Below are positions 21,101 to 64,000 of a DNA stretch of 64,000 nucleotides, one piece after another. The notes below the pieces were generated by a model. It had not been told where the DNA came from. It was given only the letters and a program-made list of their open reading frames with translations, and did not search any database. Numbering within the stretch: the stretch's first letter is position 1; every line of letters begins with the position of its first letter. The position numbers and the translations under genes are program-made. This DNA is from Schmidtea nova (Eukaryota), in contig CM097883.1 in assembly GCA_044892505.1 (NCBI GenBank), forward strand, positions 152,582,001 to 152,646,000, given 5' to 3'.

Positions 21101-22380
21101 TCAAACATACAAATCAATTGCGATATTGGAGTAATAACCACCCAGCACGGTGAAACAAAAACAAATGAACAAAACCTAAAAACAGAAAACAAAATTTTGA
21201 ACATATCTAATGAAATTATAAAAATACAGCAAACGGTACTGAACATAACTAATAAACTAACGGCAAACGACGAAATAAAATGCATAGTCGAACACACAAT
21301 AATTAGCAACGGATATCCAGTTCACGCAAATGTTAGGCAGCTAGACAAAAGAAAACTAGAAATAACTAAAGATATATTCGACGAACTGTTAGAAAACAAA
21401 ATCGTCAGACATTCAAATTCAAATCGGTCTTCAGTGCTGATGCTCAAAGAAAAAGCTAAAGGTGAATGGCGTGCTTGCGGAGATTACAGAGCTTTAAATA
21501 GAATTACAACTACCGATAAATACCCAATAACAATTATAAATGATATCATCAACAGGTTCATCAAACCAACGCTATTCAGCAAAATTGACCTAGGAAAAGC
21601 ATATCATCAAATTTCAGTCAGAACAGAGGACATTAGGAAAACAGCAATCATCACACTATATACCGAAATGTAGCGAATTGTTAGCCCCGCTGATTGAATT
21701 AAACAAAATGAAGAAAAAACATTAAAATAAATTGGAATGAGGAACTAATAACAGCTTTTGAACAAGCAAAAGAAACGCTGAAAAATGCAAGTATCTTAAG
21801 TTACCCTAACCAGGAATTGCCGTTCATAGTCAACACAGACTGCTCAGGATCAGAAATGGGTGGAACAATATTCCAAGAAGAAAACAATGGGAAAAAACCC
21901 ATAGCTTTTTTTCAAAGAAACTAAAACCACTTCAAATGAGATACTACACATTTAATAGAAAATTATTAGCGTTACACGATACGATCAGACACTTCCAATA
22001 TCTACTTGAAGGAAAGAATTCGAGGTGTTCACTGATCACAAACCCTTAATAAACGCTATGAACATGAAAACCCTTCACCGAGACAAATATGACAATTAAA
22101 TTACATCTCACAATTTAATTGCAAAATAAAATACATAGCGGGTTCAGCCAACATAAGCGCAGACGCATTATCAAGGATCGAAACCAATATCAATGCACTG
22201 CATTTACTACCAATCATCGAGATAGAAAAACTAAAATCAAAACAAAAGAATAACAGAGTTTCTAAAGATGAACTCACTTAACTGGAAGAAGTAGACAGGA
22301 TCTGGTACGACACATCAAACGACAACAACAAAAGAATTATCGTACCACCAGAATTCCGCGACTATTACATACAAAAATAC

Positions 22381-22417
<37 letters not shown>

Positions 22418-29400: not shown

Positions 29401-32400
29401 TATCTATTATACTTTCCGTTACAATTTTTCCCATTAAAAAATTTTATATTTTAGATATTATACGAGGTGTATGAAAAGTAACTACCGAATTTTTTAATTT
29501 AATTTTTTAAACATCCAAATTAAAACTGAAAGATTTAAGATTTAAAACAGTTTTTGTCATCTACATTTTAATTGTTTAATCCTGCGAACCTTTTGTGTAA
29601 AGGTGTAGAGACAGCTTATTGCATTTCAAATTCAAAATCAAGAGCGAAATATAATAGTTTTTCTTTAATATTTCTGAAAAATTCTCTCTTGGCTGTAGTT
29701 ATAAAACTGTGTTCCTTCTCCGCCATAATTTTCATTAGATAAACAGTTAAGTCTCCTGTTAAAACAATTCCAATAATAGCATGAGGTAAAGAATATACAT
29801 CGTAAATAGGAACTACATGGGCCACACCATCTCCGGGATATAAAAAAATTAACATAGCTTGAACAAAAGAGACACATATAGTTAAAGCATTGGAAGTTTC
29901 AAATATGGGAAGAGTCTTCTTTTCTCTGTTGGCATTTGGACTGAAAGGAGCTGTAATCAACGATAATATGCGTTCGAGAACTACTCTCAATTTATTGTAT
30001 AAGAATGATGCCGGATCTTTTCCATATTATCCCAGTCTGTAACGATATTGTATTCGATTGGTTATTTCAAAATAAGAATACCTCTCTTCAAGTGATCTTC
30101 ATCAATGGAATAATTATCTTTCTGTCCCATACCAACTATAACACCTTGATAACGAGGTCGGTAAACGATAGAGGGGAACACGACCCATCGAGCATCATCT
30201 TTAATAAAACTGGCTTTCCACATGCCAAATTCATTGCAATTAATGATTCATTTTATGATTTGATTTGAAAATAAAATTTTATTGTCCTGGAAAACTGAGA
30301 AGATAAAAATAAAAAAGCGATTCCAGAAAATATTTATAGTTTCAAAACAACTCTTTTTTTTCTAAAATTTTAAAAACAATTAAATACAATTCAAATTCCA
30401 CACTCCACACTCAAAACCCAAATACCAAATACCAAAAAACCAATTGAAAAAAGATAAACAACAACTTTATTAACTCATTAAGTTATAAAATAACAATAAA
30501 ATCTAAAAGATTTTATTTTAATTCAAATATTTATTTTTGGATTGAGCACTAATTAACAAAGAATAAATACATCTACAGCTGTATAGGTTAACTAAACCAT
30601 TTAAATGAGAAGTTAATTCAAATATTTCAAGAAAAGATTGATCTGATTTGAGTATTCAAAGTTTAATACATTTTGATTCTTTCAGTATAATCCGTTCATG
30701 TAGCTGATGGAGCAATTTTTTTACGATTTTGTTTATTTTCATTCTTTAATTAATAAATCAAAATGTTTTTAATTTAACAAAGAATATTAGCAGTCTTTTT
30801 CAAGTGTTATTTTCATTTTGATCTATAGTTTGTGTAAGAAGAATAAATAGCAATAATTTTGATAAAATCTTTCCAATATAAATAGGCTATACACCAAATT
30901 TGCGTGTACAGTACATGTATTATCATATATCATTGGGATAAAAAATAAATAATTGTATTTACACAACATAAGAAATCAAATATCTCATTACAATTACTTT
31001 ACAGTTTTCATGAATGAAAATGAAAAAAATCACAAATAAAATATTCCAAGACGAAGAAAATAAAATATTATAATTATCAAATCACAAGCTTTCAAATATT
31101 AGAATATTTATAAATAAATGTTGTAATTTATAATTATTATTATCATTTTATTATGCCAGACCAAAAAATGGTTAACGTTGCGCAAGGTACAGCCAGTCAT
31201 TGAAAAGTGGATCGATGATATGCTGGAAAAAGATGCTTCATGTCGTCGTCAAATCGGCGATAGTTTCAATAGATTATTAATAGATAAAAAAATCACTAGT
31301 GAGCAAATTGTTGAAGGGTTAGTGTGATATAGTAATTTTTCATCAAATTTGAAAAATTAAATCTTCAGTACTCAAGTGTTTGTATCATCCATTGACGATT
31401 TAATTTGTGATATTCCTAAACTCTGGGAATTTTTCGCTCAGTTTCTAGAAAGATTTATTTATGACAAAAATTCAAATATCACATTTTTCGAGAATATATT
31501 CAAATCAATTTTACCAAATAACGACGTGGCCTTATGTTTATCCACAGCTCTGCATGAGGCTAGTTCAAGATTGGGACATAAAATCGTTGGTCAAGTGTTC
31601 CATAAATCATTGAAATGGGAAAGAATTGTGCCAAATCACTGGGAAACGTTTTTAAAAGATAATAACTTAGAATTCACTGTAGATTTGCCGGGATTATCTC
31701 TGTGTGGTGGAGATCCATTGAATTTTATTGCTGAAGAATTGGATGACATGCTATCAAACAATTTATCGAATGAAAAGATTTTCGAGTTTCTAGAATCGCA
31801 TGTCGATAAGCCGACTTGGAAAAAAAGCGAATGTACGAAAACAATTACTAGTTCCATATTAAAAGCATTAAGAAGTTAATAGCAAATTTTCATTTAATTT
31901 TGTTTAGATTTGGTTTTTAGAAATACCAGAAACTTTAGTTCCAGAATATTTGAAAAACAAAAAAGAAATTATTAAAAGAATTTCAAATCACAAGCTGGAA
32001 AACGAAATTGAAATTTTGAAATCCGTTTTAAATATCGCTTCTGAATTAAATAAAGGTAATCACTGCACAATTGGATATATTCTATTTTTCTTAATTCAAT
32101 TAAAATCTAATGAATTTGATAATTGATCTATTATACAACATTTATTCTCTCATTAACGTATTTTATTTTTACCTTTGATATTTTCTGTTCTATTTTGGAA
32201 ATTTTCGTTTTTAGAGACTAGATCAAATTTTTTAAAAGTACACGAATTTTATTTTTTCAAGCGTGTAAAAATACACACTTAAAAACATTTTGTCGGAAAT
32301 TCGTGTATTTTAAAAAGAAATTTAATTTAGTCTATAAATTATTTTATATATTTATTCTATTTTCATCATTTGAAGTAATATGATACACGATTTTTCCAAT

Positions 32401-35400
32401 AACAAAAATCTTAGAAAAATCCTGAAAAATCGACAAAGATACTTAAAAATCGATAAAAGAAAAACGTACTAAGCGAGGGATGGGTGTATTTCATTATTGC
32501 AGAAATTTTCATTTTATATGAAAATTAGCTAACAAATATTTTTTAAGTACATGAATTTGGTCTTTATTTATAAAAAGGGAAATTTCTGAACTAAAATAGA
32601 ATTTTGTTTAATAATACTCAAGTAATTTTTAATATGATTAGAAATTAAATGCAATAGCATCTAGATTATTTGGCCTAAAACTTTGGTCTAAAAACTACTA
32701 TTGGGTTGTCCGGAATGAAATGTACGAATAATATATTATAATTTTAAATCATCATAACTTTTATATATACAGTAGTTGCGATATTTAGGGCACAAAAATA
32801 GACCGTAAATGTTAAATTTTTAAAGCATTTATCTTGTAAGAAAAGAATTTCACTATTAAAATTTTGTATGATGTCAAAAAGAATAAAATAAATTTATATA
32901 TCGTTTATTTTTTATTTTTTAAAAGCAATATTTTCGAGCAATTCTGCAATTTATAATAAAAATTTAGGGCATGTTAAAAATTTAAGGCATTATTTTACTT
33001 AAATTTAATATTTACCTATAAAAAATCAATTTTGGTTAAAAATTTAAGGAAATCTTCATTATGAACTTAAATAAGAAAAAAAGAAAAACTTACACCAAAA
33101 GAATAAAATGTGAAATTGCCAAAGCATATAAAAAGGATAAAAAGGCTTTGTGTAACATCGAAAAAGAATTTATGTATCACAAAAGGTTATTAGAACAGCA
33201 ATCAAATCTTCGGAGGAGCTTTTAAACCTGGAAAGTGATGATCCAACATTGGATACTTTTAATTTATGTAAAGCTCTAGAAATAAAGCTATTGAACATTG
33301 ATCAATACATGCTTAATGGTATCAGGCAGATTAGAAATGCAGGTGGCAATGTTTTAATGGGGAACTTAATATCATTGTCAAAAAAATATAAATCAATAAC
33401 ACCATCTTGCCGTGTGAACATCACACCATACTTTATAAGAGGTTTTAAAAAGCAATATAATGTGGTATTTAAATCCCTTTGCGGAGAGGCAAAATCTGCT
33501 ATGGCAGACAAGATTCATGACTTTTTTGATGAATTTGAAGCTATAAAGAAATCTTATGATGAAAAAGATATTTACAATTTAGATGAGACTGGTCTATATA
33601 TCAAGAACTTTGGTAGAAGAAGTTACATTCTGAGGTATGAAGATGATAGAAAAAGTATAAAAACCGATAAAACAAGAATTACTCTTTTATTGTGTTTTAA
33701 TAAATACGGCGATGAGATTACGCCATTAATCATAGGAAAAAGCAAAAACACCAGGGCTTTTAAAAACGAGAAACCAGATAATTACAACCTCAAATATGCT
33801 GACAACACATCTTCGTGGCTTACCAAAGATCAAACAGGATAGAAAAATCCTAATATTATGCGATAATTTTAAAGGTCACGAGGTTGGTGTATTTTCGAAC
33901 GTGAAACTGTTATTTTTGCCACCTAATACTACATCGATCTTACAACGTCTAGATCTAGGCATAATTAACGATATCAAGTCTAAGTATTCTGAATATGTCA
34001 ATAACTTTGTTACAAATATGATAATTGATAATAGTGCGGATATAAAATCTTGTTTTAGTGCTTTGACATTGCTATCAATAAGGTTCTTCCCAGGACGTAT
34101 TTGAATTGTCGGGAAAAGTTTGAAAAAATGAAAGAGAAGCTTCAGAATGCAGATTTAGAAAAAGACGAAAATGAAGTTTTGTTTGATACTTTAATTGATC
34201 CAGACTGTGTGGTGAAAGTTGATCCTATTTATGATGAATCCTTATTTTGTCTCGATGAAATCATTTGCGAAGTTTTGTTTGAGTCTTTAATTGATCCAGA
34301 CTGTGTGGTGAAAGATGATCCTATTTATGATGAATCCTTATTTTGTCTCGATGAAATCATTCACGATATATCGGAAGCATCTAGGATTGAATCTGTAAAT
34401 TACCATTTAAAAAACTGGATAATTTGTTGCATTTTGAAGAAATTGATGTTAGAAAGTCGTACACTGAGTTTAAAAGTAAGTACTATGAAAGTAGATCCAG
34501 AAGATCTACGGTGACTTACATTATCGATTAAAGGCTATTTGTAATTTTTATAGCTATATCTTTATAAAATGTTTAAAGAATTTTATCATAAAAAACTAAA
34601 TTTATTTTTTCCTTATAAATAATTATTTTAGTATTGGAATTCGGTTTAAAGCATCTTTTAACTGGATGTAATTATATTTTTTTCGATCAAAACTGTATAT
34701 TAAAAACTGCGCAGTGCTGTATTCAATTATAAAGAAACCAACAGATTTTTATAGCGAATATCGCGCAAAATGTTCATGCTTCATTTTTATAATCAATTAA
34801 TAAAATTTTTTATATGTAATTAGAATTTATTCTGTGAATTGTCTTACCGCAATTCATGTTAATGAATTACACCTTTTAAAGTAAAAAAATCGTATATACA
34901 TAAATAATAATAATTTTAAATAATGATTTAATGTAATTTTAAACAAAATATTTTTTTTCGAAATTTAGGGCAAATAAGATTTTTAGGACATATTTGTGCC
35001 CTAAATTTCACACACTACTGTATAAGTATTTCTTTATTTTAAAGTTCATTAGAAAGCGCTTATTTCAAATTCAAATATTAAGTAAGATTTATAATAATTT
35101 AATTACTATAAATTTCATTTTCAATTAGAAATCATGATTTGAGACTTTTTTATTTATATGAGGGGAAATCGAAGAACAATTCAGGTGAGGTGGAGAGGAA
35201 TATTAATAATGCTTTTGGGAGCGATATAGTTAATGAAAGAACTATTAGGCGTTGGTTTAAAAATGTGATGACGGAGAAATTGATCTCGAAAATATGCCTC
35301 ATGGTAGGCCCAATATCAAGTGGTAGGAGGAAGATTTACGTGAATCTGTTGCTCAAAATTCAACAAAATTTGTTCGAGAACTTGCTATAGGTCTGTCTGT

Positions 35401-49724: not shown

Positions 49725-51134
49725 TATTTTGCCTGTGACTGGGATATATTTATTTGGACATAATTCTTGAGTGATGGACCAAACTGCTCGCCTTTTGTTC
49801 AAAATTATTAGTTTTGTTTTAATAATAAAATTTTACTGATTTAATTGATTATTTATTTGTCTGTCATAACTTATTAATGGAGAAGATAGTCATTAAGTTC
49901 GTTTCAAGTAAACTTTTGTAGGGAACATAATGAATAGTGGTAGGTTGCTTAACTAGTAGGGGACTAAAATGCGCAAAAGAAACCTTCTATCGGTCGCACT
50001 TGAACCCACTGTGATGTTTGGTCATTCATAGTTTCGAGATTTTCGACGCTTACTGTTTGCGAACATCCACCCATTTGTATCATTACCAATGTTGCATCGT
50101 ATCGGGCAACAAAAAGGTTAAATAATATTTTATGTGTTGAGTTGTTGATGTGAAATCCTAGCAACGCCAAAGCCATATTGACAGTCAACAACCCACCAAC
50201 TGAATAGAATAAAAATGGAAGCGTAAAGGAAAACAATAGGAAAAAGTGGTAGTGAGAGTGTTTAGGAGTAAATAGTTAAATGATTGAGGCAGATAAGAGT
50301 TAGAGGGTAAAAATCTATATAATAAACCTGATTTTAGTGAATTAATTTATGCTCAATATTGAACATCCACATAGGAAGAAGAATATAAATGGGCAATATT
50401 CCTTCTATTGGTCTTCTTGACCCCAAATGTTATATTCGGTATATTACAGATCTGGAAACAGCGTTCACTTTATGCGGATATCCACCCATTTGTTACAGGG
50501 ACAATAAGAGCTAGGTCAGCCAGTAACACACCAAAAATACTATTTAACATTTTGTAGGAATATTTATTTTGAGTCAGTTTCTTCTCTGAATCCTATATTG
50601 AAAATCCTTAAAACCCAAAACAACAAATTCTATTGAATTCCACAATTTACAAACGATAAATAAATACAATTTCTAATTTCTGCAAAACACAGCACTCTTC
50701 TTTATTCCAGCGATAGGGGTAGGTCTACCAAAGATAAATTACCATTTCTGATAAGCTTTTAATTTGTTAATATTAAGTTTCTGACAATCTCACTCTTTTT
50801 ACTTTTCAAATGTATCGTACAACCGACTAATAATTTTACTTCGACCAAACTGGGAATTTTCTGTCTTTTTGCTATTCCTTTTATAATAATTCTATTGTGC
50901 CAAAATATTAATTAAATTTACAGAATGGAGACATAATGGGGACATCTTTTTTTACAATTGTATTTTTGCAGAATTGAAACGACTGCTGTTTTTTATAATT
51001 TTATCATTTCGGCGTACGACTCCGATAATTTGATTTTATGTCGGGTTTCTCTTTTGTTCGGGTTTCACATTGACTCGGGTTTTCAACATAAGTAATAAAT
51101 TATTCATTAATCGTTAATTAATCTTTATTTATTA

Positions 51135-52158
51135 TGTTCGGTTCGTATCAGTGGTTTACGACGAACACAGAAAATATATATATATATATATAGATATATT
51201 TGATTTGATTATCGGACTCCAAACGATAATCCGCTTATATAATTATAAATAAAATATATGTTTTAGGTTGTGTGTAAGGAAAACAAAACTAATTCTTTTT
51301 ATTAAGATTTATTGTGAAATATGTATAACAATGTACAATATAATAAAATAGCTGCTAAGCAAAAGTTAGAAAATCGGTTATTCAAACCGTCCTCAGAGTT
51401 AAGAACGAAAGCTGGACCTAAAAGGCTCAACAGCTCCGACTAAATGAAAGGTCAAAAGATGAGGGATTCCCTGTAGTTTAACCGCGATAGTGACAACCCA
51501 GAAATGGTTGTCACTGTGACCTAATAATATCCCTTCTAATAATTTATTATTTAACGACTTTACTGAAGGGGAAAAATAGTAATACAACTATTTCCCCGTG
51601 ATCGATTTATAAGATTTAAAAACAAACTAGGAAAATTACCAGCTAATAAAGATTATTCCAATTTTCGGGAAATTATCGCAAATGAAATTCAAGCTAAACT
51701 TGTCGTAATACTTCTGCCGTAAAAATTAATTTCTCCAATTCACAAATCTGTAAAACTTAGATTCACTTCTGTAAAATTTATGTTCTGTCTTGACTGATTT
51801 GACAATCAGTTTATATACAAATTATTTTCTCTCATGTAGGTCTAGACGACCACCTATTACTAACTACGTGTAGGTCGAAATTGACCTTACAAAATATTAA
51901 CTTTAAAGTAATTTATTATTACTATATATATCTTATTATTACTATTTAAATTTCTCATGTATTTATTTATTACTATATTTATTATATATTATTTAATTGT
52001 TACTATATTTAATCTATATTTATTTATAGTAATTATTTATTTACTATTACTATTTATATATTTATTTATAGTAATTCTTAATTGCTATTTATATTTATTT
52101 ATTTACTTATAATATTTAATTACAAAAACCCGAGATCCCTTGATCTCGAACCCTAACA
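51135..52158 (-). repeat. 3' LTR (~1024 bp)
   Basis: Starts TGTTAGGGTTCG 2 nt after the PPT; ends CGAACCGAACA (imperfect inverted terminus); AATAAA near 51300; (TA)n near the end. The 5' LTR is not in the window to confirm. Confidence 0.75.
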
Positions 52159-52450
52159 TGTCTTCCCCCTAACAAGATTTTCGTCCCGAAAATTAAAGCG
52201 GAAAAGACAAGAAGGTTACGCAGCCATAAAATAAAAAATAAAATAACAACACATGCATATATATACATTGAATGCTCCTGGTCAATAAAAATCACACAAA
52301 ACAAATAAGTCATAATGTTGATCACAATCAATATCAAATAACAATTGTCTGTAAACGTTGGATTGTTGATCACATAGCCGAAGTGCTAATTGTTTGATTG
52401 ATAGTTGTCATAGCTTATAGCTAGACCTTGGATTGAACGTAGCAGAAATG

Positions 52451-54415
52451 CTAGTTATCCTTTGCGAATAGGTTTTGAGCTGCTCTCTTGCGTATATGCG
52501 CTTGTTCGTTCTTGATGCGATCTTCCACTATATCTGGTCTATAGCTGACCACCAATGTTTCGCGTGTTTCGACTTCCTTATATACCAAAGACGAAATCAC
52601 GTATGATTTTCCGTTGGCCTCCAATACGCCATAGTAAGGGAAGTTTGAGACTGATGATTGGTGTACCGGTTTCCCGTCGTATTCTTTTATCCTAGGTACC
52701 CAATTTCTCTCTGGTCGCTGCCAAAAACTAGGGTCTTCATTGTCCAAATCCTGGGGTATCTTTGCTGAATTTCCCGTTCCAACGAAATCCCCTTCTCTTA
52801 TAATAATAGGTTCGCCCTTAACCTCAGGAATCTGTTCCATATCGGGTGGAACGAATGCTGTTTCGATTAAATCTTTGTCTTCCGTCGAGAGGAGATTTGG
52901 TACTTTCTTCTTGATCTTTAGATCTTGTAACCTTACAACAGGTTCTTGACTTTTCGTTGGGGGTGACTTTTCTACTGAAGTCAATTTTTTAAAAGTCTTA
53001 GTAACTTTTTCCAAGAGCTTGTTCTCTTTCTTTGGTGGATTTTCTGGCACGATCTTTGTAATTGTACGGCTGTCTCCGTGTAAAGTTAAACGCATCTCTG
53101 TTTGCTCCTCACCCTCGCTTTCGCAGGTGGCATAATCGTCTTCATCAGCTAATGATATAGCTGGAGGAGATAGTGATTCTTCCTCAACTATCTTTTGCAA
53201 TTTGGTTGATAATGGTTGTTCCTGGGGTAAGCTCTCAATAGCTTTCCTTTTACTCGTTTCTTGTGGCTGTATTGTATGAACCATTTTGACTTCTGATGTA
53301 ATCGTCCCACTACGATTACCTGGGGTGATGTCATCTACCCAAACTTCTCTCAGTTTGAGGTAAATATTACGTGTCGTTTCCACGTCATTTTCCGTTTTCA
53401 GATCTGAACGGTTTAGTTCTTCCTTTTCGAGAATTGACTTTGATAAATACGCGAGTCGATAATGTCCGTTACATTTCTTTAGTTCTCTCGCTTCCAGACA
53501 TTTTGCTGCTCCTAGTTCTCTAATTCCCAAAACTCGTTGAGGGTGTAACTGAACTGCTTCCAAGAAATCATTGACTTGGAGACCTATTAGGATTTTCCCA
53601 TCACATAATTTTCTAATACGGTCTGCGCAATCCTCTCCGTCAAATTGTCCGATAATTTCTTTTTCGGTCATACCATGCGCGTGCGATTGGTAATGTTTGA
53701 CCTGGTTTCTGGGTGTAACCACCGTGTTTAATATTAAATCACCACAGTAGTTTGCTATCAAAACAGCCACCAAAGCTGGCTTTAAATAATCTCGCAAAGT
53801 TGCGTAATGCGCTGCAATAAATATTGACAATCTATCTTCTTGATTGGGGTGCAGATTCATCCGAACAAAGGATTTGAATGACTTGAGATCGTTCTCATTC
53901 ACATTATAGGTCCAGGCAGGTTCGTTTTTCCACAATGATTGCACTGCCTTGCTGGGTTCCAAAATCTCTAATACCACAATAGTATTATATCCGTCACATT
54001 GGATGGAGATATTCTTTTCTCTGCTATCTCCGTTACTAATTTCTAGAGTTGATTCTGGTTGAAGTAGGATGGGTCCTGTGGCTCCTGCCATGAAGATTGT
54101 AAAGGGTTTATTGATCGCGTGAATCAGGAGATGGTGAGTAAATGTTGATCTGTTAAATTCCGCCATGTGTTCAGTCAACCGGGTGTTCTCACGGCTGGTG
54201 ATTGTGACTATGCACATTTGTCTCTTAGGCGATCCGAGAAACTTAAAATTGTTCGGGATGCCGGTGCAGTGCCCGTAATACCAATAGCGACGACCTTTCC
54301 GTGCTTCTGCGGATATCGCTTTTTCGATGTTTCGATAAATCAGTTTTTCCTTCTGTACTGTTTGCACATCGATAGTGCTATAACGCTGCTTGTATTGTGA
54401 CACTTGATGCTTCAT
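52451..54415 (-). CDS. Accessory ORF3 with a degenerate DEDDh (REX4/ISG20-like) exonuclease domain
   Basis: LVAVLIANYCGDLILNTVVTP..QVKHYQSHAHGM...LCDGKILIG...RLAYLSKSIL...ENDVETTRNIY (53340-53830); acceptor TTTTTCTTTCAG at 54418, 2 nt before ATG 54415. Confidence 0.75.
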   Translation of the reverse strand: MKHQVSQYKQRYSTIDVQTVQKEKLIYRNIEKAISAEARKGRRYWYYGHCTGIPNNFKFLGSPKRQMCIVTITSRENTRLTEHMAEFNRSTFTHHLLIHAINKPFTIFMAGATGPILLQPESTLEISNGDSREKNISIQCDGYNTIVVLEILEPSKAVQSLWKNEPAWTYNVNENDLKSFKSFVRMNLHPNQEDRLSIFIAAHYATLRDYLKPALVAVLIANYCGDLILNTVVTPRNQVKHYQSHAHGMTEKEIIGQFDGEDCADRIRKLCDGKILIGLQVNDFLEAVQLHPQRVLGIRELGAAKCLEARELKKCNGHYRLAYLSKSILEKEELNRSDLKTENDVETTRNIYLKLREVWVDDITPGNRSGTITSEVKMVHTIQPQETSKRKAIESLPQEQPLSTKLQKIVEEESLSPPAISLADEDDYATCESEGEEQTEMRLTLHGDSRTITKIVPENPPKKENKLLEKVTKTFKKLTSVEKSPPTKSQEPVVRLQDLKIKKKVPNLLSTEDKDLIETAFVPPDMEQIPEVKGEPIIIREGDFVGTGNSAKIPQDLDNEDPSFWQRPERNWVPRIKEYDGKPVHQSSVSNFPYYGVLEANGKSYVISSLVYKEVETRETLVVSYRPDIVEDRIKNEQAHIRKRAAQNLFAKDN

Positions 54416-54601
54416 ATCTGAAAGAAAAATAATTAACGTTAATATCAGATATACTGATATGCCAATATTGGCTAAAAAGAAATGCATAAATCTCGATTTA
54501 CGGGATCTACTTATGCTGTAAGTTAATGCTACTCGGAGCTCAACAAGATTATAGATTTTAATATATATATAAATACAAATATGTGATTTTATCTGTAATT
54601 G

Positions 54602-57600
54602 TCATAATCTCGTCATCATAATCCCATCAACCGACTCAATAGCCTGGCTGAAGAATAATTTCATCCAAACTCCCATTGCTATCAATGTAGTGATCATAGC
54701 TAATACTGCTGACGTAATAATCCATACCCCAACGGGTAATTTTCCCAAGTGAGTAATGGGGTTTACTTCATTAATTTCACACTGACAACTTTTAATATAG
54801 CTTTCTGTTGATACTGTTGGTTTTACCATTTTCAATCCTTTCAATCTCTGCCATATTGCAGGATGAATGACGTAACTCTCTTTCCGTATTAAGGATGTAA
54901 CCGATTTCGTTGTCGTCGATGATTGAGGTAATTTCAAAGGTATTACTTCGTAAAATACCTCATTCCATTCATCGACTCCGGGCTTTTGTTTATTATTCAT
55001 ATAAGTGATATGAGCTTCCCACTCCACTGAGTTGTTCCACTTGAGATTTTGTTTCTCAACATCTTCATTTAGCCACAATTCTTGTACAATTTCCTTGTCG
55101 GAATGGATTTCTATCTTTACTCTATCCACTCCTTGTTTTGGTTGGCTGAAGGTAATCATACCTTGTTGGATATTTATTCTAGCTTTCCTTTTGAAATCTG
55201 CTGTCTTCAGCTTCCATTGTGACTTTGAAAAATCTGACCATCGTCCAAACATAAAATGTTGAACAAGTATATCTAATAAATATTCCTTTTCTGCTCGTAA
55301 GTCCTTTATGACTTTCACTCTTGTGTTTGAATCCAATGTAAAATGGAAACAACGTCGTTCACAAAACGAGAACTTGAATTTTGTATCATTTTCAGCCAAT
55401 GATATTATCCTAAATTCCTGGAAAGATCTTCTGAATGCGAGATCTTGGATTTGAACCGCTGTTGGAACAAATGTCTTTACACAGGATATGAGGCAACTTA
55501 TTATTACCAAAAATGTAACTGATTTTGGCACGCCTCTTGATCGTAATGGATATCTGTCTGAGACTGGTTCTGACCCTTTATCCTCCTTTTTCTTAATCGG
55601 ATCTTTCTCCGTGACCGCAACCTTCTTGCATCTGTTAGCATGTACCATTATTGGTTCAGCTTTTCTATTTGCTACTAATTGCAAGATTAAATTCGTGTCT
55701 GTTGTTCTTAAAACCTCATACGGTCCTTTGAAGTTTCTCATTAATTTAGGTGATAAGCCCTTTTTATTATAATGGCTTTCCAACATCACCTTGTCTCCAA
55801 CTAACATGCCATGTCCTTTGGCTTTCTTGTCATGATAATCTTTCGAGGCTTCCTGACTGAATTTTATACTAAGACCTGCTTTTGTCCATGCTTCTTGCAT
55901 TCTTTCTCTCATTTCCATGAGGTAATCCTCTTGGTCTAGATACTGTGTTGCTTTTGGGAAGAACAACAAATCTATAGGCATTTTACTTTGCCTTAAATAC
56001 ATGAGATAGAACGGCGTTTGTCCCGTACCCTCATGAACAGCATTTCTGTATGCGAATAGGCATGATGGAATATGTATATCCCAATCCGTTTGCCCTGAAT
56101 TTACGTATGATGCTAGCATATTTGCGAGCGTTCCGTTAAATCTCTCTACCAATCCGTCTGTTTGTGGATGATACGGAGAGGTATTCAATTTTAAAATGTC
56201 GAAATAATCATTTATTCCTTTTAACAGATTACTCATGAAATCTGCTCCTCTATCTGTTAGTAGTTTTGTAGGTACTCCATACCTAAAAACAATTTGCTCT
56301 ACGAAAATCCTGGCTATCGTATCTGCCTTGTGATTCGGTATCGGATAAGCCTCCGGCCATTTCGTCAAGTAATCGCAAAATACCAATATGTATTTGTTAC
56401 CACTATTTGATTCTTTGAATGGCCCTAAAACATCCATTGCCGTCATTTCCATCGGTGTGGATGGTACTGGCATTGGTTTCATTGGCACATGCGGTTTCTT
56501 CCCCGTATTTCTCCTGGTGATACAGATCTTACATGTCTGACACCATTCCTGTACGTCTTGTTTGATTGTCGGCCAGAAATATTTCTGCTTCAACCTTGAC
56601 AATGTTTTCCTGGAAGACAAATGCCCTCCCAGTGCTCCATCATGATATTGTAACATCAAGGCTTCCCGATATTTCTTAGGGACCATTATGACATTATCCC
56701 TTACATCCACATATTTGACTAATCCTTCTTCTAGGATAAATTTGTCTCGATTTTTCTCCCAATATTTATTAAATTCCGTCGGTATGAACTTTGCTTCTAA
56801 AGCCTGTCTGATTTGGTTTATCTCTTCATCCGATTGTTGTGCTGCCATTAAATCCGCGAGTCTGTTTGCTTCTCTTGTAAGTGCGAAGATTGTTCCTTCT
56901 AATCTTCCTTCCTTAACGTCTTCTGCTTCATCACCCTGGTCCATTCGAGAAAATGCATCCGCATTACCATTTTGGTGTCCTTTTCGGTAATGTATTTCGA
57001 TGTCGTATGGCTGCAAGATCAATGCCCATCTAACCAATTTTGATGTATCCATAGTATGCTTGGTTAACCACTGTAATGGTCTATGATCCGTATACACAAT
57101 GATCTTTCGACCCCATAAATATGTCCTGAATTGGTGTATAGCATACACAATTGCTAATGCTTCTAATTCGATAACTGCATAATTCTTTTCATGTGGTTTT
57201 AATCCTCTGCTAGCATACGCTATGGCATATTCGTCTCCTAGGTCATCTCTTTGACCTAACACAGCACCAATACCCCGAGTGCTGGCGTCTGTCATGACCA
57301 AAAATTGTTTCTCAAAATCTGGAAACCGTAATATAGGAGGTTCCACGAGCATCCTCTTTAGCATATCAAATGCTTCCTGTTGCTCTTTTCCCCATACAAA
57401 TTTGACATTTTTGCCCTCTAATTGTGTCAGAGGAAATGCTATTGCCGAAAAGTTCCTGATGAACTTCCTGTAATATCCCACTAAGCCCAAAAACCCTTTT
57501 ATATGTTTGACAGTCTTTGGCTCTGGAAAATTCTTTGCTTTCTCAACATTTGCTGGATCTGGCTTTACTCCATCCTTCGAGATAATGTGACCGACATAGA

Positions 57601-60214
57601 CTACCTCTGATTCGGCCCATTTACATTTCGATGGTTTTACCTTAAGATTTGCATTAATTAACCTTTTGAATACGTCCTCTAAATGTTCTAAATGTTTTTC
57701 CAAATCAGGAGAAAATACTATGATGTCATCTATGTATACCATTGCATGATGAACATCCATTAACATTAGATTCATTGCTCTTTGAAACGTTGCCGGCGCT
57801 CCTGTGAGACCAAATGGCATTACTGTATATTCGAAGTGTCCAAGGCTTGTGGAAAAAGCCGTAATTGGTATTGTCTCCTCTTTTAACTTGATTTGGTAAA
57901 ATCCCTTCTGAGCATCCATCACTGAGAAATATTTTGAATTTCTCATACGACCGTAGATGTAATCCAGTAATGGTAATGGGTGACTATCCTTGCAAGTTGC
58001 TTCGTTTACCATTCGATAATCGTTGCATAGTCGTACTGTTCCATCCTTTTTTGCCACTACTATCATTGGTGACTGGTATGGTGATTTACTATGCCTGATG
58101 ATGTTATGTTTTAACATCAGTTTTACCTGCTTATCGACAGGTTCTTCCAAGCTAAACGGAATTCGATACGGTCTCAGCTTTATTGGTTTAATGTTGTTAA
58201 GAACAATTTCATGTTCCAACAAGTTCGTCTTTCCCAGATCATATTCGTGCTTGGCGAATACTTGATCATATTTTCTTAACAACATGTTTACTTGAATATT
58301 CTCTCTTCGTGAAAGAGCTTTACTATTTGCCGTTGGCGCATCATAGTACTCGATGTCTGGTTCTCTATTCTCTGCCTTCACTGTCAGGACGGATCCCCCA
58401 ATCGGTAATTGATCCGACTTTGATACTCTCCCTACTCTTGTATCTGGATACAATTTTAATGGTTTTATATCTAAATTGGCTACCCGAATTGGTATTCTGC
58501 CATTTTCAACTTTACCAACGCTATGCGTAATTGGTAGATCATATTTTGCTGAGAACCTTTCATCTGGTTCGAATACAACTTCTCCTTCCCACTGTTCGCT
58601 AGTGGACACGAAACATACTGTTTCTGCTCTAGGTGGTATTATCATCGTATGGTCGATGAAAACTGTATCATCATTATAAACTTTTCTTTTCTTACCGATT
58701 GATCTGACTAACAATCCGGTAGCACAATCGAACACAACTCCTTTTAATCTTCTTAAAAGATCCATTCCTAGTAGACATTCTACTGGACAAGTTCTCATGA
58801 CTATAATATCATGACGAAATTCTTGGCCACATAGCTTGATGTTACAAGCTAGAGTACCGATAATATTCAATGATGTGCCTGTAGCACCTGTTAGCGAAAC
58901 TCTTGAGGTTTCCATTGATTCCAATTCTTTTTGATTTAATAGTGTTGCCTCTATGATGGTGCCGTCTGCTCCTGAATCTATCACTGCATTAACTGTGTGT
59001 CTGTTTATTTTTATCTTTATCATGGGTTTCTTATCCAAGTTCACCCCATTTGCCATCAAAATAGTAGCATGCGTTATCCCGATGGTATTTGCTCTGAATT
59101 TCTCTGCTTCATCTTGTTCGGTATCACTCAATTTTGGATTATATTCCTTGAATTTAGCTTTTATTGCTTCTAACGACTCGATAGGATACAGTTTCCCTTC
59201 ATTTTCTAACGATAATGATATGCTTTTACCTGTTTCTCGAGCATCTTTGTCGAGAATTTGTTGATGTTTAGAAGTGTACATTTTGTTCCTTGGTAAAGTT
59301 AAAGCATAACTTGGCTTGCCTTCTCCTGATGTCTTTTGAAACTCTGGCGATTCTCCCTTTGGCGCTGTTGGTAAGCTTCTAAGATATGGCAATTGCATAT
59401 ATCTTGGGCTTCTTTTCAATCTAGGCGATGCTGTATTGATTGCAAATTTCTGGTCTGCACTATCGTATTCATCTTCTGAAATCATACTTTTGTCGAAAAT
59501 CTGTTTTGTCGCTTCGTAAGGTGGTTGATAATCCCGATATTTCATTTTCCTTAATTGATGATTCGGTTTTTTATTGTAGTTTCTTTTTCGACTTCTACTT
59601 TGCCTCTGAACTGTATTAAGAGAGTCTCCATTACCTCCTCCTTCCGAATTGTTATCGTCCCGATAACTTGTATTACCCTCCATTTCGATTCCAATAATCT
59701 CGTGTTTTACCAAGCTTCTCTGTTTGATTGTCTTTATTTCTTTACGATGATGTTTAAACAATGCAAATTCCGCACACATAGGACATAATCCTAGTATCAA
59801 CTTCCAAGACCATCCACCGATTTTGAATATACTGTATGTGGAAATTAATTGTGTTATTATTAACTTTAGAATTACGAATATTGCATATATTCCTGAGCAG
59901 CCTGCCACGAAAATACCAAAATTGGTAAACCTTCCCCATATTTTCATCATTACATTTTTTGCTGCTTCTTTATAATGATCTGGACCAAATAATAAATTGT
60001 AATCTGGTCTCATTTCGTTTGCTTGGTAAATTGTTCTTATGATTTCGGTGATACCTCTTTCTCTTACTTGAGGGAATAGCAATGTCTGTCTTGCCTCCTC
60101 AATGTCTGCTGGAGTGTAAATTCCTCCTTGTGATAATTCATCGAGTGATTTAAATTCCATGTTTTCCTCGAGTTTCGTGACTTCCAATGTTTCCACCTTT
60201 CTATTAGATGGTTT
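54602..60214 (-). CDS. pol: Polyprotein: env C-terminus/TM, protease, RT, RNase H, integrase, type-I membrane protein
   Basis: VIDSGA (DSG 58970-58978); YIDD (57725-57736); TDAS, ELE and TDH in RNase H; HHCC plus MDVLG, TDRG, VERFN in integrase; GPY; RYPLRSR; then a hydrophobic segment and a C-terminal TM. Confidence 0.95.
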   Translation of the reverse strand, partial: KPSNRKVETLEVTKLEENMEFKSLDELSQGGIYTPADIEEARQTLLFPQVRERGITEIIRTIYQANEMRPDYNLLFGPDHYKEAAKNVMMKIWGRFTNFGIFVAGCSGIYAIFVILKLIITQLISTYSIFKIGGWSWKLILGLCPMCAEFALFKHHRKEIKTIKQRSLVKHEIIGIEMEGNTSYRDDNNSEGGGNGDSLNTVQRQSRSRKRNYNKKPNHQLRKMKYRDYQPPYEATKQIFDKSMISEDEYDSADQKFAINTASPRLKRSPRYMQLPYLRSLPTAPKGESPEFQKTSGEGKPSYALTLPRNKMYTSKHQQILDKDARETGKSISLSLENEGKLYPIESLEAIKAKFKEYNPKLSDTEQDEAEKFRANTIGITHATILMANGVNLDKKPMIKIKINRHTVNAVIDSGADGTIIEATLLNQKELESMETSRVSLTGATGTSLNIIGTLACNIKLCGQEFRHDIIVMRTCPVECLLGMDLLRRLKGVVFDCATGLLVRSIGKKRKVYNDDTVFIDHTMIIPPRAETVCFVSTSEQWEGEVVFEPDERFSAKYDLPITHSVGKVENGRIPIRVANLDIKPLKLYPDTRVGRVSKSDQLPIGGSVLTVKAENREPDIEYYDAPTANSKALSRRENIQVNMLLRKYDQVFAKHEYDLGKTNLLEHEIVLNNIKPIKLRPYRIPFSLEEPVDKQVKLMLKHNIIRHSKSPYQSPMIVVAKKDGTVRLCNDYRMVNEATCKDSHPLPLLDYIYGRMRNSKYFSVMDAQKGFYQIKLKEETIPITAFSTSLGHFEYTVMPFGLTGAPATFQRAMNLMLMDVHHAMVYIDDIIVFSPDLEKHLEHLEDVFKRLINANLKVKPSKCKWAESEVVYVGHIISKDGVKPDPANVEKAKNFPEPKTVKHIKGFLGLVGYYRKFIRNFSAIAFPLTQLEGKNVKFVWGKEQQEAFDMLKRMLVEPPILRFPDFEKQFLVMTDASTRGIGAVLGQRDDLGDEYAIAYASRGLKPHEKNYAVIELEALAIVYAIHQFRTYLWGRKIIVYTDHRPLQWLTKHTMDTSKLVRWALILQPYDIEIHYRKGHQNGNADAFSRMDQGDEAEDVKEGRLEGTIFALTREANRLADLMAAQQSDEEINQIRQALEAKFIPTEFNKYWEKNRDKFILEEGLVKYVDVRDNVIMVPKKYREALMLQYHDGALGGHLSSRKTLSRLKQKYFWPTIKQDVQEWCQTCKICITRRNTGKKPHVPMKPMPVPSTPMEMTAMDVLGPFKESNSGNKYILVFCDYLTKWPEAYPIPNHKADTIARIFVEQIVFRYGVPTKLLTDRGADFMSNLLKGINDYFDILKLNTSPYHPQTDGLVERFNGTLANMLASYVNSGQTDWDIHIPSCLFAYRNAVHEGTGQTPFYLMYLRQSKMPIDLLFFPKATQYLDQEDYLMEMRERMQEAWTKAGLSIKFSQEASKDYHDKKAKGHGMLVGDKVMLESHYNKKGLSPKLMRNFKGPYEVLRTTDTNLILQLVANRKAEPIMVHANRCKKVAVTEKDPIKKKEDKGSEPVSDRYPLRSRGVPKSVTFLVIISCLISCVKTFVPTAVQIQDLAFRRSFQEFRIISLAENDTKFKFSFCERRCFHFTLDSNTRVKVIKDLRAEKEYLLDILVQHFMFGRWSDFSKSQWKLKTADFKRKARINIQQGMITFSQPKQGVDRVKIEIHSDKEIVQELWLNEDVEKQNLKWNNSVEWEAHITYMNNKQKPGVDEWNEVFYEVIPLKLPQSSTTTKSVTSLIRKESYVIHPAIWQRLKGLKMVKPTVSTESYIKSCQCEINEVNPITHLGKLPVGVWIITSAVLAMITTLIAMGVWMKLFFSQAIESVDGIMMTRL

Positions 60215-62779
60215 TCAGTCAGGTAATGAGATCCATCTATCATTTACTTTGTATAACGGTGATATTGCTGGATTGCAAATTGAAGGTTGAGGCTTTTGTT
60301 TTTCATCCAAAAGTCTCCTCGTTACTGGCATTACAAATCGTATTCTGTTTTGATATGACACTGGTAATTCTAGAGTACATTCGTTATACCTAGTTAATTG
60401 TACCTCTATGGGTTGACATTGATAGCTGTATATAGCTTCCCCCATAATTCTGCCAAACATTCCATCTTCTAGCGACATAGGTGTCACTAGATCCGGATTC
60501 ACGATTGATATCGCTAATCGATTTCGAACTATTTCGCGATTTAGTTTGCAATCATTGAGTATTACTTCCTGATACATTTCCTGCATTTGTCCTTGCAGAT
60601 CATGATATAAATAATCTATTTTATTATTTATATAGTTCGTGATTTTGATATCCTGGCTGTGAATATTCTTGGCTTTTTGGATAATTGTTTTTGACAAATA
60701 TAATCCTTTATAGTTGGTCTCGTACACCACTTTTCCGCATTTTGTCTTCTTATCTTTTCTGACAAATCTGATTGCATCTTTCTTATCTTCTGATACTAAT
60801 ACTAGAGGTGTAATTTCCTCACTAATATCCTCTTTTTGCTGTTTGTTGATCCTTTTCAACGTCTTTTCTTTATCCCAAATTCTTTCTCTTTTGGGTAAAT
60901 CTCGATACTTTGTCCCGTTCAACTTATGGAAATTAATTTTCTTTAGTAATGACAATTCGCAATGGTCTAGTATTTGATCGTATAATAATGTGCTGACCCC
61001 TGTTCTGCAGCTTCCAAATTTCGCAAGGCACTGAGGGTGTGCCATTAATCTTCCTGATAATACATCGAACGTCCCTTCGTATTCTCTTAATTCGATTGAA
61101 TAGTCCTCGATATCTACGACAAAGCTTACCAACTCCGATCCGCGAGTTTTCTTTCTTCCCGTACAGGTACCATCTGATCCGATTGATCCTCCTCGTGTAA
61201 TGGTTACTCCCAGTGTTTTTCCTACTTCCGCGGCGATGGTTACCTCGTTATCGATTCTTAAAGTACCTTTTCGAAAGGCGTCTAGACAATCCTCTGGCAA
61301 TATGTTGACAGGTCTAGGTATTAGAGTGGCTGATAGAAAAGCCGTATAGCTGTGTGAACCACAATAATATTCAAATGTCGCTCTTTGGACTCTACATTCT
61401 CTTATCTTAGTTCTGAAGAATTCACTTTCTTGATAGACATAGTATTCGACCTTTTCTCCTGTTTGGACTTTCTCTGGATATGCCTCTTTGCACTCAATTG
61501 CATCCACGAGCGAGTATATCCGAGCTAACTTTGGATCACTGCAATCGAACGCTGTCATTGTGTTTGTCTGTTTCATTATCCCCATCATTACTAAAAACAT
61601 TAATATCATATTCGTCATATTCCCCATTCCTCCATTTCCGAGGTGGTTGTTATTCATAGCTTCTTCCACAAATTCATATCGTGGTTTATGTTTCTCCTCT
61701 TCCCAGAAGTTATTTTCACTCATCCACGTTCCGAGATAATGCTCCGTTATCTCCGTGATCTGATCTATTTCTCGATTAATAAACTTCTTCTCATTGCCTG
61801 CGCGGGCTAAAGCATCTTGAATCAACATAGATAATGCTGTCACTATTTTTCCTTTAGATAACCCATCTTGTATGAGCGTCTCTACCATACTCTGTATCTC
61901 GTTTTGCGGTACCCCTCTAGGTAATCTCCTCATAGTCTTCGCGATTGACTGTGTCACTTTATCCACTTGAATTCCTTTAATCCGAGTGATCTGCCATTCT
62001 GGCTTTAATATTCCTATGATCTGTTTTAATCTCTTCCATGTCAGAGATTTTTCTGGTATATGTACTCCCTCGTCTCTCATATCAACATCCCTGGCTATTC
62101 CTGACAGGGTTTTCATCTGAACCTGTTTAATGGTTTCTTGGTTTAATTGCTCCGTTGGGGGAGGTTTCATTTGATCTTTCCTAGGCCTTCCTCGCCTATC
62201 TTTCTTTGTCTGCCATGCTGGCCTGATAGTTTCTACCGCCTGAGAAGTTGAAGCTCCCACGTTAGTTTCCTCATTATTGAGTCTGATTTCCTCTTCTCCG
62301 TGATTATCGGCATCGATATCTACATTAAATGGATGTGTTTCGACGTTACCAGTGACCATTTCATCTGGTAACCGTAATGCTGACCATTGAGATTCAGGTG
62401 GCTCTACGGGAATGATTGCTACCGTTGTAGTTTCAAAAGGTAGACATCCCACATCTACTAAATATTCATCATCATCTACTTGCCCTCCATGAATCATAAT
62501 CAAGAATATACCGGTAGTCTGCCCAGTATCTATTAAATCCTTTCTCAACGTTATCACTTTGCTAAAACAACGATATAACCTCGTCATGGGTTCTTTTCCC
62601 GATATTCGAATGTCTAAAGTTATCATGCCTTGTCGGTGTGCTTGATGACGTATTGCTGTTCCATTTTTTCTCATTAACATTTTTATTTCTGTTTGAAAAG
62701 AACTAGTTTCTTTTACTACAGGTAGTAATATAGGAATTATACTCTCCAATGATTCTACTGGTATGCGCAATACCAACAT
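60215..62779 (-). CDS. env: AT-hook-containing spacer, signal peptide and chuvirus/gB-like glycoprotein ectodomain
   Basis: RRGRPRK; MILMFLVMMGIM...TA|FDC; C-x(9)-YYCGSHS; Cys-rich ectodomain; continues in frame past one TGA into GGIYT...WGRFTNFG and the TM. Confidence 0.85.
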   Translation of the reverse strand: MLVLRIPVESLESIIPILLPVVKETSSFQTEIKMLMRKNGTAIRHQAHRQGMITLDIRISGKEPMTRLYRCFSKVITLRKDLIDTGQTTGIFLIMIHGGQVDDDEYLVDVGCLPFETTTVAIIPVEPPESQWSALRLPDEMVTGNVETHPFNVDIDADNHGEEEIRLNNEETNVGASTSQAVETIRPAWQTKKDRRGRPRKDQMKPPPTEQLNQETIKQVQMKTLSGIARDVDMRDEGVHIPEKSLTWKRLKQIIGILKPEWQITRIKGIQVDKVTQSIAKTMRRLPRGVPQNEIQSMVETLIQDGLSKGKIVTALSMLIQDALARAGNEKKFINREIDQITEITEHYLGTWMSENNFWEEEKHKPRYEFVEEAMNNNHLGNGGMGNMTNMILMFLVMMGIMKQTNTMTAFDCSDPKLARIYSLVDAIECKEAYPEKVQTGEKVEYYVYQESEFFRTKIRECRVQRATFEYYCGSHSYTAFLSATLIPRPVNILPEDCLDAFRKGTLRIDNEVTIAAEVGKTLGVTITRGGSIGSDGTCTGRKKTRGSELVSFVVDIEDYSIELREYEGTFDVLSGRLMAHPQCLAKFGSCRTGVSTLLYDQILDHCELSLLKKINFHKLNGTKYRDLPKRERIWDKEKTLKRINKQQKEDISEEITPLVLVSEDKKDAIRFVRKDKKTKCGKVVYETNYKGLYLSKTIIQKAKNIHSQDIKITNYINNKIDYLYHDLQGQMQEMYQEVILNDCKLNREIVRNRLAISIVNPDLVTPMSLEDGMFGRIMGEAIYSYQCQPIEVQLTRYNECTLELPVSYQNRIRFVMPVTRRLLDEKQKPQPSICNPAISPLYKVNDRWISLPD

Positions 62780-62784
62780 CCAGT

Positions 62785-64000
62785 CTAATATTTCCTTGAT
62801 TGTTTCTCCATCCTCGGAGATTTCTGCAACTCTATCTTCAGACGTTGCTCTATTTGTTGGACTTCTTCCAACTGTGCAATTTCCATTTGTGTGAGTAGAA
62901 ACACACTGTCTTGATCCACTACTGGGACCGATATTCCTGTCAGTTTCGTTGTGAGTTTCGTTACCTTTCCTGGTAATACACCATTTTGTAGTAGTGTTTC
63001 TCCAACTACTAACTTTTCTCCATATAAATAAAAATCATATCTATTATGTTTCAATTTCATCATTGTATCTGACAACTTGTCTGTTCGACATCTTACATTC
63101 ATGTCGATGTTAAACTCCTGCTCATGAGGAAGTTTTATGTTTAAATGTGAATCCTGAAGATCCCATTCATGTTCCATTGCTGTCCCTATCTTTCGTAGGA
63201 TTCTATGTATGTCGCTATGATACCTTGGATCATCTTCGACCTGAGATATTAACTGTAATATCTTTCCAATTTCACTATTCTTGATATCACCTTGTGATAA
63301 TTTCTCTAATTCTCTAGTCAGTCTCTGCTGATACTCATATCTGGAATCCACCAGTTTTAAACATTTTGCTAGGGTATCTGACCCTTTCTTGGCCTTTGTT
63401 TCCTTGAACAAAGCCTGGTCGAACTCGCTCAGTATGGTACTCATACTGGGTTCGTCATCATTATCAGAATTTGTTTCTGATTCTATTACCTCATGATTCT
63501 CGCTGCTGGAATCCATGGGTTCACTATTTCCTTGCTCATCTGTGTAAGCATCATGATTTTTCTCAGCTGAAATCATCAAAACTGTTCCTTGCCCAACTGT
63601 GTGAGCATCATCGCTTTCCTCAATGGGGTTCATTATAACTGTTCCTCGCCCATCCATGTGAGCATGATTTTTCTCAGCTGAAATCATAAAAACTGTCTCT
63701 TGCCCAACTGTGTGAGTCTCATTTATTTCTTCAATTGTATTCATCAAAACTGTTCCTCGCTCATCTGTGTGAGCATGATTTTTCTCAGCTGAAATCATAA
63801 AAACTGTATCATATCGATCCATTAGCCGTGCTAATCGATTTTTCTCCTCCTGGATTTCCATTTCCAGTTGTTGCAAATACGTCAATTCTTTATCGTGATT
63901 GACCATGAACGTAGTTTTTGGCTTGCTGACATTACCACTATTGGTAGTCCTATTATTCGTATTATTACTCTGATTTTGAGGACACGACCTCAGAATATGC
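62785..64000 (-). CDS. gag: Gag C-terminal part (frame open to the window edge)
   Basis: The frame of ORF 62785-63906 stays open for 31 more codons to 63999, reading HILRSCPQNQ (H-x4-C end of a CCHC knuckle). Confidence 0.8.
   Translation of the reverse strand, partial: HILRSCPQNQSNNTNNRTTNSGNVSKPKTTFMVNHDKELTYLQQLEMEIQEEKNRLARLMDRYDTVFMISAEKNHAHTDERGTVLMNTIEEINETHTVGQETVFMISAEKNHAHMDGRGTVIMNPIEESDDAHTVGQGTVLMISAEKNHDAYTDEQGNSEPMDSSSENHEVIESETNSDNDDEPSMSTILSEFDQALFKETKAKKGSDTLAKCLKLVDSRYEYQQRLTRELEKLSQGDIKNSEIGKILQLISQVEDDPRYHSDIHRILRKIGTAMEHEWDLQDSHLNIKLPHEQEFNIDMNVRCRTDKLSDTMMKLKHNRYDFYLYGEKLVVGETLLQNGVLPGKVTKLTTKLTGISVPVVDQDSVFLLTQMEIAQLEEVQQIEQRLKIELQKSPRMEKQSRKY
63520..63820 (-). repeat. 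~3 x 111-bp in-frame repeat (37 aa) in gag
   Basis: GCTGAAATCAT at 63566, 63677 and 63788. Confidence 0.95.

Follow-up and report, generated by a model that had tools for sequence, protein, structure and literature searches.

We have found that ORF 52451-54415, on the minus strand of a 64,000-nucleotide stretch of Schmidtea nova DNA (hereafter the window), is an accessory gene at the 3' end of a young Ty3/gypsy element of the gag-env-pol type, and that this gene is under purifying selection instead of decaying. Its product is predicted to consist, in this order, of an AlkB-like fold, a dead DEDDh exonuclease domain, an acidic linker and a small conserved C-terminal domain. By analogy, we give a probability of roughly 0.5 that the protein acts as an RNA binder with no cleavage activity, and in this way shields the RNA of the element or soaks up host small RNAs. 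The features are as follows.

52451-54415, minus strand: accessory ORF (ORF2) of the LTR element, ATG at 54415, 654 aa (ORF list and translation)
53948-54415, minus strand: residues 1-156, double-stranded beta-helix of AlkB/2OG-Fe(II) oxygenase type (fold match, column counts)
53324-53842, minus strand: residues 192-364, ISG20/REX4-type DEDDh fold (sequence and structure matches)
52766-53323, minus strand: residues ~365-550, acidic/charged linker, poorly conserved (variable length, weak alignment in subfamilies)
52496-52753, minus strand: residues ~555-640, small domain kept in subfamilies (separate tblastn blocks, 36-42% identity)
54418-54434, minus strand: predicted 3' splice acceptor, T-rich tract and CAG, two bases before the ATG (T/C-tract score)
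54602-60214, minus strand: 3' part of the polyprotein, with the fusion glycoprotein end, protease, RT, RNase H, integrase and tail (Pfam)
60215-63034, minus strand: middle part of the polyprotein, Monjiviricetes-type fusion glycoprotein (PF24664, E 2e-59)
62785-63999, minus strand: gag part of the polyprotein, zinc knuckles just outside the window (ORF reading)
52161-52170, minus strand: polypurine tract (sequence)
51134-52158, minus strand: 3' LTR, TG...CA (sequence)

All features expected of a Ty3/gypsy element are present, namely LTRs, a primer site (matching host tRNA-Trp), a polypurine tract, a target duplication and the order protease, RT, RNase H, integrase; in 54602-60214, Pfam finds PF24664, RVP, RVT_1, RT_RNaseH, Integrase_H2C2 and rve. 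The 5' LTR lies just outside the window (L021:2961-3981) and is identical to the 3' LTR at 1019 of 1025 positions. Since a 4-bp target duplication, TAAT, also stands on both sides, the element is 14.8 kb long and young. The env part lies in frame between gag and pol, that is, in the layout of Burro/GYPSM1. In this copy, an in-frame stop at 60215-60217 ends the middle part and a frameshift near 62.8 kb puts the gag part out of frame with it; a single open frame of at least 3279 aa is found in five of eight sister stretches. The integrase is followed by a tail of ~300 aa (54602-55560, minus strand) in which one stretch resembles a signal and another, at the C-terminus, a transmembrane segment, and very divergent tails of this sort also end the polyproteins of related elements; the tail may represent a membrane protein additional to env. 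In addition, imperfect 111-bp repeats with a recurring motif FMISAEKNHAH are located in the gag-proximal polyprotein (63495-63773, minus strand).

According to the available part of PMC6431247, planarian Burro/GYPSM1 encodes a gag-env-pol polyprotein with a mononegavirus-like fusion glycoprotein, plus accessory ORFs, and GAG-ENV-POL errantiviruses are described from flatworms (Platyhelminthes), nematodes and bryozoans in the available part of PMC13524379. Compared by description only, our element resembles Burro in the fusion glycoprotein placed in frame between gag and pol and in having accessory ORFs, but Burro is larger than 30 kb and has MATH, BIR, BCL2 and ankyrin domains, whereas the present element has 14.8 kb and none of these Pfam families. 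The ankyrin domains of Burro have a counterpart in ankyrin repeats of the polyprotein of a related metagenome contig, L052. Among the domains that the available part of PMC6431247 gives for Burro there is neither an exonuclease nor an AlkB domain, and the main text of PMC13524379 contains neither the word exonuclease nor the word AlkB. The domains described below supply a likely identity for an accessory gene of Burro-like elements, whose layout by itself makes a planarian host probable.

A Pfam scan of ORF 52451-54415 gives zero matches. The earlier note, made from the sequence alone, had nevertheless read in it a degenerate REX4/ISG20-like domain, and this reading is borne out. The top PDB sequence match of the exonuclease domain is ISG20L2 (E 4.4e-5 with the single domain; E 2.4e-32 with the family profile). 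We have also built a structure model of residues 1-372 from a 93-row alignment (pLDDT 94, pTM 0.90; the single-sequence fold of the protein has pLDDT 29). The structure search, which had been named as a check, recovers the DEDD fold: residues 192-364 (to ~366) match ISG20L2 at Z 18.4 (rmsd 2.4, 158 aligned) and ISG20 at Z 18.2, while Pan2, Pol III epsilon and SDN1, at Z 13-14, fall well below. Exuperantia, an RNA-binding DEDD pseudonuclease, is also among the fold matches (Z 10.1). This fold match is partly built in, since the model alignment holds 11 cellular-type exonucleases; the PDB sequence match with E 4.4e-5 is independent of that alignment. Overall, the RNase H-like DnaQ fold with the ExoI-III layout is found in both the predicted structure and the sequence, and the top sequence and structure matches are proteins of the ISG20L2/ISG20/REX4 type (PDB 7yw5, 1wlj) and SDN1 (5z9x). 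The full set of four acids and the ExoIII histidine of the ISG20/REX4 exonucleases is not retained.

In the alignment with intact relatives, the catalytic positions of this protein read A201 and H203 (ExoI), F284 (ExoII), L339 (ExoIII His) and D344, that is, one of the five DEDDh residues is left. It had been noticed before that the ExoI DxE is replaced by AAH, that the ExoII GH is GL, and that the ExoIII His is absent with the Asp kept, and the alignment agrees on each point; what had been overlooked is the loss of the ExoII acid, whose column is F284, with the Asp of QVNDF off by one position. The AlkB-like domain and the split of the family into intact and dead forms had also gone unseen. 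A look at other copies, likewise named as a check, gives the same degenerate set: A201, H203, F284, L339 and D344 are identical in 20 of 20, and the position of D344 is Glu in four of five local subfamily rows. The protein differs from the ISG20/REX4 types not only in keeping 1/5 catalytic residues, but also in being element-borne and in its fusion to an AlkB-like domain on the N-terminal side. The Tyr-Arg-Thr substrate motif of REX4-like exonucleases, present in the cellular REX4-like rows, is missing here and in most intact relatives. As to charge, the exonuclease domain has a net charge of 0 in this protein, and the mean shifts from +1.7 in intact rows to +3.8 in dead rows, which is about what the loss of acids alone gives and therefore does not directly support RNA binding.

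The two flanking domains had been called unknown, and for the N-terminal one this no longer holds. Residues 1-156 match OsALKBH1 at Z 11.1 (rmsd 3.4, 139 aligned), followed by prolyl-4-hydroxylase (Z 10.7), ALKBH6 (10.4), ALKBH3 (9.9) and E. coli AlkB (9.7), and the viral structure library gives weak matches to viral AlkB-bearing replicases and cupins. The predicted model contains the AlkB/2OG double-stranded beta-helix core with an N-terminal extension, at ~10% identity to AlkB structures. As prolyl hydroxylases tie with the AlkB family at Z 9-11, these matches indicate the fold, not a function or subfamily. ESM Atlas with residues 1-180 gave no usable match. The iron triad of 2OG-Fe(II) oxygenases is His-x-Asp...His. 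It is absent family-wide in 64 rows, as judged from alignment columns and not from superposition: the sole column with His in at least 40% of these rows is H99 (88%), and no conserved acid follows two residues later. Because a second conserved His is missing, the AlkB-like domain is likely non-catalytic in the whole family. Other residues are family-conserved, i.e., Y27, P54, N55, K58, R65, H99 and E150. The domain is found in 34 of the 43 intact rows, in 25 of the 29 dead ones and in none of the 11 rows of cellular type.

It could be argued that enzymatic activity persists, either at a remodelled site, as has been proposed for Maelstrom, or in a conserved polar pocket of the AlkB-like domain. 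The 15 local rows all share H245, C263, C271 and N343 and have an acid at position 344, and Y27, N55, K58, H99 and E150 are kept in 88-91% of the 64 rows. However, dead rows at a greater distance have Met, Arg, Gln or Leu in place of the acid at 344, and the second His needed for an iron triad is not conserved; we regard continued enzymatic activity as quite improbable.

The C-terminal flanking domain, on the other hand, has stayed as it had been described. The small domain at residues ~555-640 has no match in Pfam, and its ESM Atlas matches are all below 0.9. A SET-domain identity for residues 545-654 was considered and rejected, as the ESM Atlas clusters lie at 0.87, under the 0.9 line. The linker at residues ~365-550 is likely disordered.

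A full HMMER scan of 1.84 billion representatives has yielded 87 relatives, while word-index protein searches with the protein or the alignment returned zero. Pfam RNase_T matches 45 of the 87, and none of ten relatives looked up carries a name. Together with this protein and 13 local or metagenome ORFs, they form an alignment of 101 rows, from which 21 rows incomplete at the four acidic columns were left out. We have scored the remaining 80 for the five catalytic residues, accepting D or E as the third acid and counting the His within a 7-residue window. All five residues are present in 51 rows and at most two in 29, and no row of the 80 has three or four. By our own labelling, eight of the 51 intact rows are of the cellular REX4-like type, without the N-terminal domain; thus, among 72 element-type homologues, 43 keep five residues and 29 at most two. 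Two of the dead database rows look frameshifted. From the intact (43) to the dead (29) rows, the catalytic and pocket columns drop from 95-100% to 0-21%, yet P235, R236, D259, G297, R299, Y352 and D361 remain at 79-97%. According to these columns, the loss of residues is targeted to the active site, and the same catalytic loss is found in subfamilies down to ~40% identity. The genomic context of homologues, where seen, is a gypsy element. Viral contigs gave 0 relatives among 64 pattern matches.

The intact form is also carried by elements of this genome. An intact relative has 137 matches in it, and of 15 surrounding stretches, 13 have pol upstream and 11 have all five residues. In the integrase tree, the dead-gene elements (4 rows) and the intact-gene elements (7 rows) are sister clades, each with support of 100/99, and the outgroup to both is L052, a contig on which two paralogues, one dead and one intact, follow pol in tandem. 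On the same contig (L052:3-11517), an in-frame second protease-like domain and ankyrin repeats stand between the gypsy pol and the two exonuclease ORFs, and the end of the last ORF looks ubiquitin-like by eye, with no Pfam match. The exonuclease tree requires four changes between the intact and dead states, yet a single origin of the dead forms is not rejected (p-AU 0.38 with 78 rows; 0.57 without two rows), so repeated independent loss of catalysis is not claimed. One homologue with two of five residues (L071:3409-5211, minus strand) is nested among intact rows and has no pol within 4.8 kb upstream; it is possibly a separate loss or a host-retained copy.

These data bear on the idea that the dead protein regulates an active sibling, pairing or competing with the intact exonuclease of the same or of sister elements. 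The tandem arrangement behind gypsy pol in L052/L053, the outgroup position of L052 on integrase, the single origin that the test allows and the abundance of intact forms in the same genome all agree with such a role. However, the tandem layout is known from one element type only (two of four loci searched, nearly the same in sequence), and its dead copy does not group with this protein in the free exonuclease tree. Moreover, this element and its subfamilies have the dead gene without an intact copy on board and are still amplifying. We therefore consider regulation of a sibling a rather unlikely role.

We have further examined whether the gene is maintained. Among 150 scored matches to the exonuclease domain, at least 86 are at 95% identity or more, and further subfamilies are found at 40-57% identity. 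In residues 1-175, the part not used in picking the sequences, 19 sister copies differ from this copy by 28 synonymous and 13 non-synonymous variants, a ratio of 0.13. In the exonuclease domain of the same copies, 36 synonymous variants and one non-synonymous variant are counted; this ratio, 0.009, is biased low because the copies were picked by the exonuclease domain itself. Over longer distances, pairs of dead subfamilies have saturated synonymous sites and exonuclease domains 73-79% identical, the corresponding identity in intact pairs being 68-73%. That some genomic copies and the two frameshifted database rows are broken might suggest a decaying passenger gene without function. Against this stand the strong synonymous excess, the all-or-none loss of catalytic residues and the open frames of 650-700 codons in subfamilies at ~40% identity; the selection counts largely refute the idea, which we hold to be extremely improbable.

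The accessory gene may have a history partly of its own. In two elements the polyprotein DNA is 96% identical, while the accessory domains are only 56% and 79% identical. In the loci concerned (L028/L045 compared with L029/L047 and L030/L049), the accessory gene and the sequence beyond it are sharply different, with synonymous sites saturated. Near-identical polyproteins with diverged accessory genes suggest that the accessory cassette may have been exchanged between elements by recombination. As a side observation, the LTR region of one dead-gene subfamily (L046, L050) holds kilobases of AAT/TAT microsatellite.

A gene that changes faster than pol, as a host-facing and exchanged cassette is expected to do, could also encode a protein whose two domains are scaffolds for host proteins, e.g., partners of REX4/ISG20- or AlkB-type enzymes, with no RNA binding; the neutral charge and the lost pocket residues would fit this as well. 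But both folds stem from nucleic-acid enzymes, and R236 and R299 stay conserved in the dead rows, which makes pure scaffolds unlikely.

The start of ORF2 lies 187 bases past the polyprotein stop, and we predict that the accessory ORF is probably made from a spliced RNA. A strong acceptor in front of ATG 54415 had been pointed out previously, and it has been found again: with its AG ending at 54418 and the exon starting at base 54417, it ranks first among 408 YAG sites on the internal minus strand of the element, and a second candidate AG ending at 54472 ranks second, by a crude T/C-tract score of our own. The CAG is present in 76 of 76 exact matches to the ORF start. Most homologues have acceptor-like sites 0-16 bases before the first ATG, and their phases differ, which fits a non-coding leader exon. 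No acceptor lies within 45 bases of any of the first three ATGs of the dead tandem homologue L052:7268-8740. A search for spliced genomic copies with three alternative upstream contexts gave 0 matches, compared with 76 with the acceptor, although it would miss a donor exon that ends in TCAG. A splice donor for ORF2 was looked for in the element and not found; a GTGAG in the primer site was discarded as a donor, being simply the tRNA-Trp complement. Four contig sets, which look like DNA from their tagmentation adapters and even cover, contain no joint or loose end at 54417 among those listed. A joint 54582-63297 was seen in one contig run.

Returning to RNA binding without cutting, the preferred reading would run as follows. 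A non-coding leader would be joined by splicing to the acceptor at 54418. In its ancestral state, the gene may have encoded a working 3'-5' RNase, with the non-catalytic AlkB-like module picking its substrates, and the present lineage would have lost cutting and kept binding. The dead protein could then cap or sequester RNA 3' ends, of the element RNA or of host small RNAs, and weaken RNA surveillance by the host. By analogy with the arenavirus exonuclease, which suppresses innate signalling according to the available part of PMC7968707, the intact relatives may degrade RNA.

Several known systems resemble parts of this arrangement. Maelstrom, EXD1, Exuperantia and PML PXL share a DEDD fold without catalytic residues; Maelstrom and EXD1 are given as RNA-binding dead DEDD domains in the available text of PMC5408684, and so is PML PXL in that of PMC13659232. 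However, these pseudonucleases are host proteins, several of them in anti-transposon defence, whereas the present one is transposon-encoded and its RNA binding is predicted only. For DEDD capture by LTR elements, the earlier note had cited bdelloid rotifers, and the precedent stands in part. In the available text of PMC5408684, Vesta and Juno carry an ORF3 of the DEDDy type, RNase D-like and with intact residues, and these ORF3s are said to be typically spliced. What the two cases share is a DEDD-family domain in an additional ORF at the 3' end of a gypsy-type element, and a D-E-E-D variant is common to Vesta/Juno ORF3 and many intact relatives here (PMC5408684). But the present domain is of the DEDDh type, is part of a fusion and occurs in intact and dead forms, so the rotifer case is an analogy and not the same capture. 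It is the only DEDD-in-LTR capture given in the available part of PMC6338049. On the other side of the protein, an orchid Ty3/gypsy element has an AlkB ORF, recent and active as an m6A demethylase (available part of PMC9289625), and it too is an accessory gene with an AlkB/2OG fold; the present domain differs in lacking the conserved iron triad and in being fused to an exonuclease. A fusion of an AlkB fold with a DEDDh domain in intact and dead states did not come up in our full-text literature searches, with Repbase, subscription journals and supplements, which may annotate it, outside their scope. PIWI control of such elements has been studied in planarians (PMC8532177), with no mention of an exonuclease in the available part of that paper.

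More tentatively, and at a lower probability than RNA binding itself, the family might be a two-state anti-surveillance module of env-bearing LTR elements, in which an AlkB-fold RNA reader, possibly of modified bases, is joined to an ISG20-like nuclease. An old duplication would have given a cutting and a non-cutting form, elements would keep one or both and swap the cassette, and the dead form would shield element RNA or tune an active form supplied by sister elements. If such a module exists, an animal retrotransposon would encode a suppressor of small-RNA or exonuclease defence that is built from two pseudo-enzyme folds. Accessory genes with which retrotransposons act on the RNA defence of the host are rare and for the most part untested. 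As intact and dead versions coexist in one genome and are both selected, they offer a clean comparison of cutting and holding RNA.

Some observations concern the surrounding genome. A tandem tRNA-Trp gene array with ~282-bp spacing starts at ~128.02 Mb of G000:C3 (L086); ARAGORN finds two tRNA-Trp in L086, and the same tRNA matches the primer site of the element. Genome-wide, the tRNA-Trp pattern has 1984 matches, of which the first 100 listed are all in this array. Elsewhere in the window, a MIF4G exon (17944-18378, plus strand) and an MA3 exon (31361-31879, plus strand) lie ~13 kb apart and likely belong to one host gene. The interval between them contains decayed remnants of retroelements (20747-22764) and an inverted-repeat element (28287-29197), and a DDE_1 transposase piece is found at 33156-33842.
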